Position numbers: made by a program
Shown here: positions 3,001-6,000 of the stretch, piece after piece
Layout of the letters: every line of letters starts with the position of its first letter
How positions within the stretch are numbered: the stretch's first letter is position 1
Virus record (IMG/VR): IMGVR_UViG_2537561620_000008
DNA from: a virus
Lineage: Duplodnaviria; Heunggongvirae; Uroviricota; Caudoviricetes
Strand: one strand, 5' to 3'
DNA: 7,794 nucleotides

Positions 3001-6000
3001 TTGCCTATAACGGTCATCGTCACAGAGAGAACGGTCAGGGCAGTAACACCGATAAACCTGATAAAGCGATGGAGGCATGATGGAACTGTGGCTGATGGTG
3101 AACGGTAAACGCACCTGCGCCAGCGCACCGCTGGATCCGCTGACCCGCGCCGTGGTGATTTCCCTGTTTACCTGGCGGCGGGCGGAGCCTGATGACAACG
3201 CCGACGTCCCGATGGGATGGTGGGGGATACCTGGCCTGCGGTACAGAATGACCGTTACGGCTCCCGACCGTGGCTGCTTCAGCGCAGCAAACTGACCAAT
3301 CAGCTGGTGCAGACGGTAAGGGGGTATATCCGCGAATGCCTGCAATGGATGATTGATGACGGCGTGGTGTCCCGTATTGATCTGGATATCCGCCGCACCG
3401 GGATTAATGAACTGGGTAACAGTATCACTCTCTGGCGTCGTGACGGACCGGTAATGATTTCTTTTGATGATCTGTGGAGTGCGATAACGCATGGCGGACA
3501 GTGAATTTCAGCGCCCGACGCTGGCAGAAAATATCAGTATGCTCCGTAACGATTTATTCGTCAGGCTGGACGTCAGCGACACGCTCCGGCGCATGGATGA
3601 AGACGTGCGGGCAAAGGTGTATGCGGCGGCGCTGCATACGGTCTACGGGTACATCGATTATCTGGCAATGAATATGCTGCCTGACCTGTGCGATGAGTCA
3701 TGGCTGGCGCGACATGCTGCGATGAAACGGTGTCCGCGCAAGGGGGCCACGGCTGCCAGCGGGTATATGCGCTGGGAAGGTGTCAGCGATGGCCTGAAGG
3801 TGACCGCCGGAAGTGTTATTCAGCGCGATGACCTGGTTCAGTACACGGCAACTGCCGATGCAACCAGCTCCGGTGGTGTCCTGCGCCTGCCGATCGCCTG
3901 TTCAACTGCAGGCGCGGTCGGTAACGCTGACGACGGTACGGCATTAATCCTGGTCACGCCGGTGAATGGTCTGCCGTCTTCCGGTGTTGCAGATACCCTG
4001 ACAGGTGGATTTGATACTGAAGAGCTGGAAACGTGGCGCGCCCGCGTCATTGAGCGGTATTACTGGACGCCGCAGGGCGGGGCTGACGGGGACTATGTCG
4101 TCTGGGCTAAAGAAGTGCCCGGCATTACCCGTGCATGGACATACCGTCACTGGATGGGAACGGGAACTGTTGGTGTGATGATTGCCAGCAGTGACCTGAT
4201 TAACCCCATTCCGGAAGAATCAACGGAAACGGCGGCAAGACAACATATCGGGCCACTGGCCCCGGTGGCAGGCTCTGATTTGTATGTGTTCAGGCCGGTG
4301 GCGCATACGGTGGATTTTCATATCCGTGTGACGCCGGATACACCGGAAATACGGGCTGCCATCACCGCGGAGTTGCGTTCGTTCCTGCTGCGTGATGGTT
4401 ATCCGCAGGGAGAACTGAAGGTATCGCGTATCAGTGAGGCGATTTCCGGTGCGAACGGGGAATACAGCCATCAGTTGCTTGCCCCGGCTGACAATATCTC
4501 CATTGCAAAAAATGAACTGGCGGTTCTGGGGACGATTTCATGGACGTGACAAACGATGATTACATCCGTCTGTTGTCGGCACTGTTGCCCCCCGGTCCGG
4601 CGTGGTCAGCCAGAGATCCGGCGATTGCCGGTGCGGCACCGTCATTAACCCGCGTTCATCAGCGTGCGGATGTCCTGATGCGGGAGCTGGATCCGCGCAC
4701 CACCACTGAACTGATAAACCGCTGGGAGCGTCTGTGCGGTCTGCCGGATGAATGTATTCCCGCAGGGACACAGACCCTTCGCCAGCGTCAGCAACGACTG
4801 GATGCGAAGGTTAACCTGGCGGGCGGCATCAATGAGGATTTTTACCTTGCACAGCTTGCTGCCCTGGGCAGACCAGATGCCACCATCACGCGATACGACA
4901 AAAGCACGTTCACCTGCTCATCGGCCTGTACTGACGCGGTGAATGCGCCGGAATGGCGGTATTGCTGACAGGTCAACATGCCAGCCGCCACCAACAGCAC
5001 CTGGATGACATGTGGCGATCCCTGTGATTCCGCACTGCGTATCTGGGGTGGCACCGTTGTCGAGTGTGTGCTTAACAAACTCTGCCCGTCGCATACCTAC
5101 GTAATTTTTAAATATCCGGAGTAATCCATGCATCGTATAGACACGAAAACCGCGCAGAAGGATAAGTTCGGCGCGGGTAAGAACGGTTTTACCCGTGGTA
5201 ACCCCCAGACCGGCACACCTGCCACCGATCTGGATGATGACTACTTTGACATGTTGCAGGAGGAGCTTTGCAGCGTGGTGGAGGCATCCGGTGCCAGCCT
5301 GGAGAAGGGGCGGCATGACCAGCTGCTTACCGCGCTTCGTGCGCTGCTGTTAAGCCGCAAGAATCCGTTTGGCGATATCAAATCGGATGGCACTGTGCAA
5401 ACGGCTCTCGAAAACCTTGGTTTGGGAGAAGCAGCTAAAAGGAATGTAGGTACAGGGGCGAATCAGATACCTGATATGAGCCTGTTCGCGTCAATTAATA
5501 CCGTAACGGCTGCTGCGCAAAAATTTCCGTCTGGATTAATTTTACAGTGCGGTCAGTTGAATGGTGCCCCGAATGTATCTTCAACATACGGGATGAGGTT
5601 CCCGATGACGTTCTCAAGAGTCATTGCTGTCGTAGTTACATTGAACGTTACTGGCGCGGCTGGGCAGCCGACTGTATCGGCGACAAGTGTCCAGAACACT
5701 GGATTTAATATTACTGTGTCGCCCGGTTCAGGATACGGTTCATCTGCTGATGCGTATTACATTGCAATGGGATATTAACGAAATGTCATATTTTTATTCT
5801 GCATCGACAAACGGATTTTATTCGACTGAATTTCACGGCACCAATATTCCTGATGATGCAGTGGAAATCTCGGAATCAGAGTGGAAAACACTGATTAATG
5901 CACAGAGTGTAACAAAAATGATTACCTGTGGTGAGAACGGTCATCCTGTCATTGTTGACCGTCCTTCTCCAACACCAGAACAATTAGCCTTAATAAATGA

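Follow-up and report, generated by a model that had tools for sequence, protein, structure and literature searches.

A premature in-frame TGA in the gp48/YmfQ-family baseplate wedge gene of a cryptic SfV-type prophage of Shigella flexneri K-1770, probably a pseudogene lesion

The 7,794-nucleotide (nt) stretch of viral DNA analyzed here (Caudoviricetes; IMG/VR record IMGVR_UViG_2537561620_000008; hereafter the window) is the entire contig AKMX01000008 of the Shigella flexneri K-1770 draft assembly (GCA_000268245.1), and it follows Shigella phage SfV collinearly from orf15 through gtrV, with ~97% identity. Between the baseplate J/gp47 gene and the tail-fiber gene, in a gene order matching SfV orf15 to orf22, lies a gp48-like gene that begins, as in SfV, before the gp47-like gene has ended. 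Read directly from the sequence, its open reading frame (ORF) on the plus strand begins with ATG at 4540 and runs for 142 codons to a TGA at 4966-4968. Past this TGA the frame is unbroken for 51 sense codons (4969-5121) up to a TAA at 5122-5124, and the ATG of the fiber gene at 5128 lies 3 nt beyond it; in GenBank, 4978-5124 is annotated as a separate ORF of 48 amino acids (aa), EIQ21151. The initial annotation of the window had described the in-frame TGA, the frame open to the TAA and the 3-nt distance to the fiber ATG, all of which we recover in the sequence, although the extension, open as described, counts 51 sense codons and not 52. It had also called the extension cysteine-rich, and this enrichment is real, with 4 cysteines in the 51 codons after the stop versus 5 in the 142 before it, one of these five (C142) being a lineage-specific Tyr-to-Cys change and no feature of the family.

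By its length alone the open frame could have arisen by chance, since 51 open codons follow ~11% of the stop triplets on this strand of the window, compared with 0.09-0.16 under random models. We take the feature as real because homology crosses the stop, and not because of how long the frame stays open. The read-through translation matches the Pfam family PF10076 (Phage_Mu_Gp48) with residues 12-192 covering positions 3-149 of the 150-position profile (92.9 bits, cutoff 37.4), and it aligns over residues 14-192 with the gp48 chain in the solved structure of phage Mu (PDB 9ki1; E = 1.8e-10). Homologues in SfV, SfI, SfII, SfIV, the K-12 prophage e14 (ymfQ) and many Escherichia coli prophages are single genes of 585 nt and 194 aa that correspond exactly to 4540-5124 of the window; the gene is intact in the isolated phages SfV, SfI, SfII and SfIV, and 1,386 E. 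coli records span at least 80% of the 588-nt query in one piece.

Around the stop, the relatives read TAC TGG CAG in the alignments where the window reads TGC TGA CAG, so one G-to-A transition in the Trp143 codon accounts for the stop. Homologues as divergent as 56% identity (Edwardsiella phage EPP-1, Yersinia phage YeP1 and phiP27) retain this tryptophan, and conservation within the family is highest in the 50 residues that follow it, which include four invariant cysteines (C158, C162, C176 and C182). The alignment to intact gp48-family proteins that had been suggested as a check thus shows homology extending past the TGA and tryptophan as the residue at that position, in support of the view, put forward in the initial annotation, of one domain interrupted by a nonsense codon. 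No homologue was found that ends at the equivalent of 4965 and continues into unrelated sequence.

These alignments also refute a genuinely short gene of 142 aa, followed by a spacer or by a separate small gene, as the GenBank pair EIQ21150 and EIQ21151 would have it. The depositors do annotate two ORFs, and 48-aa ORFs of the same sequence are called in other genomes, but the homology of a single domain spans both pieces, no homologue ends at residue 142, and the 48-aa ORFs elsewhere arose by other events, so that we give this alternative hardly any credence.

The closest well-described counterparts are SfV orf20 and e14 YmfQ (PF10076; baseplate wedge protein BW3), to which the window protein is 96-97% identical over all 194 positions; the gene also matches theirs in its length interval, in how it overlaps the gp47-like gene and in lying 3 nt ahead of the fiber gene. 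The window copy differs from them in carrying TGA for Trp143 as well as Y142C, D171G and A45V, of which Y142C is shared within its lineage: two related S. flexneri loci, L033 (strain VA-6) and L035, are identical to the window at 4964, and the change, being common to sister loci, is therefore inherited. Phage Mu gp48 shares the gene order gp45-gp46-gp47-gp48-fiber-assembly protein but is distant, with threonine at the position of Trp143 and without most of the cysteines. A functional member of the family would be expected to have one uninterrupted ORF of ~180-196 aa, whereas the window copy breaks at codon 143, and on its sequence we class it as a pseudogene member of the Phage_Mu_Gp48/YmfQ family and not as a functional one.

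We consider it probable that a real point mutation with loss of function produced the TGA, in an SfV-type prophage remnant that was already defunct, with nothing programmed about it. A G-to-A transition would have turned the TGG of Trp143 into a stop in the 194-aa baseplate wedge gene, and it would have arisen inside an already non-functional SfV-type remnant of S. flexneri 3b K-1770. Ribosomes would then terminate at 4966-4968 to give a 142-residue fragment, presumably non-functional, and the 51 open codons downstream would be the remainder of the gene, still undegraded. We infer that the base call itself is biologically real. When the window is compared with 45 related loci, no more than four of its substitutions prove private (position 62, orf18 L64P, W143* and D171G), and all four are transitions, as is expected for spontaneous mutation.

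The TGA allele is confined to this contig in everything that we searched. Adenine at 4968 is absent from all of the 37 related loci that cover the site, every one of which reads TGG, and short BLAST queries with both the TGC and the TAC background at codon 142 did not find the allele in 5,426 complete E. coli genomes. As an exact 36-mer it gave 0 matches in species-representative genomes, metagenomes and viral contigs, with the TGG form as a positive control giving at least 120 matches in viral contigs. The 142-aa product is likewise recorded on one contig only, from a 2012 draft, and of the repaired 194-aa alleles, with or without D171G, neither is present in the protein collection in which they were looked up.

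The 48-aa C-terminal ORFs found on many contigs could have meant a recurrent interruption, which is ruled out by their different origins: they stem from a 1-bp deletion, from deletions of the 5' part of the gene, or from a duplicated ymfQ 3' end beside an invertase. Duplication of the ymfQ 3' end in invertase-bearing e14-like prophages is the reason that many 48-aa "DUF2313" ORFs are found in databases. In e14-like prophages with a Pin-type invertase (L005, L006, L010 and L011), we observe two copies of the final 150-175 nt of ymfQ, inverted in some loci, on either side of a segment with two alternative sets of fiber and assembly genes. The repeat boundary in these loci (ymfQ nt 414-439) falls near codon 143, the repeat corresponding to ~4953-5127 of the window.

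That the lesion lies in a prophage copy that had lost function beforehand is indicated by its neighbors (Table 1), several of which are broken. The 90-aa fragment created by the 11-bp duplication in orf17 is found on 4 contigs of other S. flexneri assemblies, and 28 contigs have a nearly identical one that derives from a paralogous copy, so this lesion is real and old; the frameshifted 274-aa gtrV fragment (-1 at 6956) is found on 35 contigs of other S. flexneri assemblies. As the orf17 and gtrV lesions recur in independent assemblies, the prophage was already dead. Furthermore, the sister strains L033 and L035 have lost 182 bp between two copies of CCGGTGCG (window 4446-4453 and 4628-4635), a deletion that creates an in-frame fusion of gp47 codon 321 with gp48 codon 33; its 483-aa product is called in two independent assemblies. 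The strains with this gp47-gp48 fusion share the local haplotype of the window (4878T, 4923G and 4964G; Y142C) but keep TGG at codon 143. Taken with the recurrent lesions, the deletion in the sister strains shows that this prophage copy had stopped functioning by the time W143 changed, so the simplest reading is a neutral nonsense mutation. Singleton changes are also richer in nonsynonymous changes in the window (13:11, nonsynonymous to synonymous) than in eight intact relatives (49:125; Fisher's exact test, P = 0.017), in numbers that are small and confounded by recombination between paralogues and by possible draft errors. An apparent second nonsense change, S113* in orf16, was discarded, the codon actually being GAG through a double substitution.

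Table 1. Genes, lesions and codons of interest in the window
Feature	Position	Strand	Remarks
DNA-circulation/gp43-like gene (SfV orf15)	101..1443	+	Frameshifts +1 at 874, -1 at 891, -1 at 905
Baseplate hub/gp44-like gene (SfV orf16)	1440..2521	+	Frameshifts +1 at ~1910, +1 at ~2454
Spike/gp45-like gene (SfV orf17)	2521..3080	+	Broken by 11-bp tandem duplication 2709-2719 (GGTGCGGAAGT)
gp46-like wedge gene (SfV orf18)	3080..3504	+	-1 frameshift in G run at 3221
Baseplate J/gp47-like gene (SfV orf19)	3491..4549	+	Intact, 352 aa
5' part of putative gp48/YmfQ-family (SfV orf20) pseudogene, codons 1-142 and premature TGA	4540..4968	+	GenBank EIQ21150, 142 aa
TGC (Cys142) at a position that is aromatic (Tyr, Trp or Phe) in other homologues	4963..4965	+	From alignments
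Premature stop TGA in place of TGG (Trp143)	4966..4968	+	G-to-A transition at 4968, from alignments; base private
3' part of gp48-like gene, codons 144-194 and native TAA	4969..5124	+	Best-conserved segment; C158/C162/C176/C182; Mu docking-loop equivalent
GGC (Gly171) replacing invariant Asp of WGD motif	5050..5052	+	Private to this contig
Short tail-fiber gene (SfV orf21)	5128..5778	+	Intact, 216 aa; own GGAG Shine-Dalgarno at 5117-5120
Tail-fiber assembly gene (SfV orf22)	5687..6190	+	Intact
gtrV glucosyltransferase remnant	6313..7644	-	-1 at 6956; expanded 10-bp tandem repeat 7348-7444; -1 at ~7612

Several observations weigh against a real mutation, and they bear on a serious rival that the initial annotation had left out of its alternatives, namely that the TGA arose as an error of sequencing or assembly, the true base at 4968 being G and ymfQ being intact or at least uninterrupted. 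SfV-type tail modules are present in the strain in at least two paralogous versions, ~98% identical, and this contig, short and bounded by repeats, could be of low quality or partly chimeric. The TGA allele is known from a single record, one 2012 draft contig, and is found nowhere else. Private 1-bp indels number about eight in the same contig (at 95, 874, 891, 905, ~1910, ~2454, 3221 and ~7612), several of them in homopolymer runs and three within 32 bp, against four private substitutions, and natural mutation is far less rich in indels than such a ~8:4 ratio. The other K-1770 draft contig, which carries a paralogous module (L051, with an intact ymfQ), also has private changes, namely 2 indels and 3 substitutions, against 0 and 0 in the sister assemblies L048 and L049; the occurrence of private 1-bp indels in both K-1770 draft contigs and in neither sister assembly suggests draft-quality errors.

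In addition, the finished genome of K-1770 (CP032513; locus L024, 300680-313330) has an intact 194-aa gene, and the draft and the finished assembly of what is nominally the same strain differ at 49-61 sites in a blocky mosaic pattern. L024 alternates in blocks between the two draft haplotypes, that of the window and that of L051, which points either to gene conversion between paralogous prophage modules or to chimerism in one of the assemblies. The intact gene of L024 does not directly contradict the TGA, because around codon 143 this locus follows the haplotype of the other paralogue. An artefact is disfavored in that the TGA is a substitution, whereas indels dominate the error signature, and in that all four private substitutions are transitions. 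Moreover, the lesions common to other strains prove that the prophage copy is truly decaying, and a real nonsense mutation in it needs no special pleading. We therefore regard an artefact as a possibility to be taken seriously but as the less probable of the two. Whether mutation or artefact, the gene is normally 194 aa long and the stop is no designed feature.

With respect to the protein, the structure of phage Mu offers a guide to what a stop at codon 143 would remove. Mu gp48 is the wedge protein BW3, whose N-terminal region forms a three-helix bundle with two copies of gp47 and whose loop at residues 133-155 anchors the N terminus of the fiber (PMC11915804). In the gp48 alignment this loop maps to approximately residues 150-172 of the window protein, a stretch that lies wholly beyond the stop. 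The 142-residue fragment would accordingly keep the N-terminal part that bundles with gp47 in Mu and would be without the last 52 residues, that is, the best-conserved segment with the four invariant cysteines and the equivalent of the fiber-docking loop, a putative role carried over to the window protein from Mu by alignment alone.

A third possibility is that the stop is leaky and tolerated, either because readthrough restores tryptophan and yields some full-length wedge protein or because translation restarts at the ATG at 4978 to give the 48-aa piece. The TGA is followed by C, and this UGA-C context is the weakest stop signal in E. coli, where tRNA-Trp is able to read UGA; the ATG lies 10 nt downstream of the stop with an AGG ahead of it. 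A literature search on the UGA-C context in E. coli returned only eukaryotic work. Against a leaky stop, no homologue has the stop, and the 70 nt that start with it (4966-5035) fold no better than shuffled sequence (minimum free energy of -15.4 kcal/mol versus a shuffled mean of -17.7, z = +0.79). A search of Rfam at a permissive threshold gave no match at the stop region and no selenocysteine insertion sequence (SECIS). The read-through product would also bear Y142C and D171G at conserved positions. Furthermore, with the orf17 spike broken across strains and orf15, orf16 and orf18 broken in the K-1770 contig, there is no baseplate for a wedge protein to join, whether full length or not. Trace readthrough is plausible chemistry, but nothing suggests that it is selected or used, and we hold a leaky, tolerated stop to be very unlikely. 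More doubtful still is a variant in which leakage at UGA-C or restart at 4978 would supply the wedge protein, at full length or as two complementing fragments, to act together with the paralogous SfV-type tail module.

Selenocysteine is the least probable of all the readings, verging on the negligible. Its sole support is an in-frame UGA in a cysteine-rich region, while the homologues have tryptophan at this position (threonine in Mu) and neither cysteine nor selenocysteine, no stable hairpin follows the stop and no SECIS is matched in Rfam. Programmed readthrough and selenocysteine recoding systems resemble the window only in having an in-frame UGA and an open frame downstream; the window stop differs from them in not being conserved, in lacking a stimulatory structure or SECIS, and in deriving from a sense codon. 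Among the alternatives listed in the initial annotation, the nonsense mutation is accordingly the one that fits, whereas the short protein with a spacer is rejected and readthrough has no supporting signal.

A pseudogene lesion in this setting is in line with what is known of the host strain. K-1770 corresponds to SFL1520, of serotype 3b, and its phage regions have been described as mostly cryptic (PMC6424224). As in SfV, the tail module of the window is followed by a gtr O-antigen glucosylation cassette, an arrangement common to the cryptic serotype-converting prophage remnants of S. flexneri (SfV, SfII, SfI and SfIV family), and the window remnant has multiple inactivating lesions, like the phage regions of K-1770 generally (PMC6424224). 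Particular to this copy are a dead gtrV, which fits serotype 3b, and its coexistence with at least one paralogous copy in which ymfQ is intact (L051). In sum, 4966-4968 shows either a commonplace pseudogene lesion or a draft error, within a gene family and a kind of cryptic prophage that are both known.

The biological weight of one more inactivating lesion in a cryptic serotype-converting S. flexneri prophage is small. In practical terms, the two GenBank entries EIQ21150 (142 aa) and EIQ21151 (48 aa) are better annotated as one pseudogene of the YmfQ/gp48 family. The contig also shows that draft assemblies of multicopy prophage regions can mimic recoding candidates, and in genome scans, an in-frame stop in a prophage module should be counted as a candidate for recoding only where relatives conserve it.

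Outside the tail module, the 5' part of gtrV contains a perfect 10-bp tandem repeat (TTTGATATGG, 9.7 copies, 7348-7444) that encodes the repeated peptide HIKPYQTISN. The alignment with SfV breaks at this array, consistent with ~57 bp fewer in SfV, and relative to the window L033 has 20 bp more and L037 has 10 bp less, so that its length varies between strains in frame-shifting steps. In the intergenic terminator region between the fiber-assembly gene and gtrV (6195-6262), we observe a 4-bp deletion and two 1-bp insertions in G and C runs relative to SfV. Within the tail-fiber assembly gene, the plus strand at 5977-6153 gives a subthreshold match to Rfam IS009 (46.9 bits, gathering score 117, E = 1.5e-8), which is probably due to similarity in sequence among prophage assembly genes rather than to an RNA gene.

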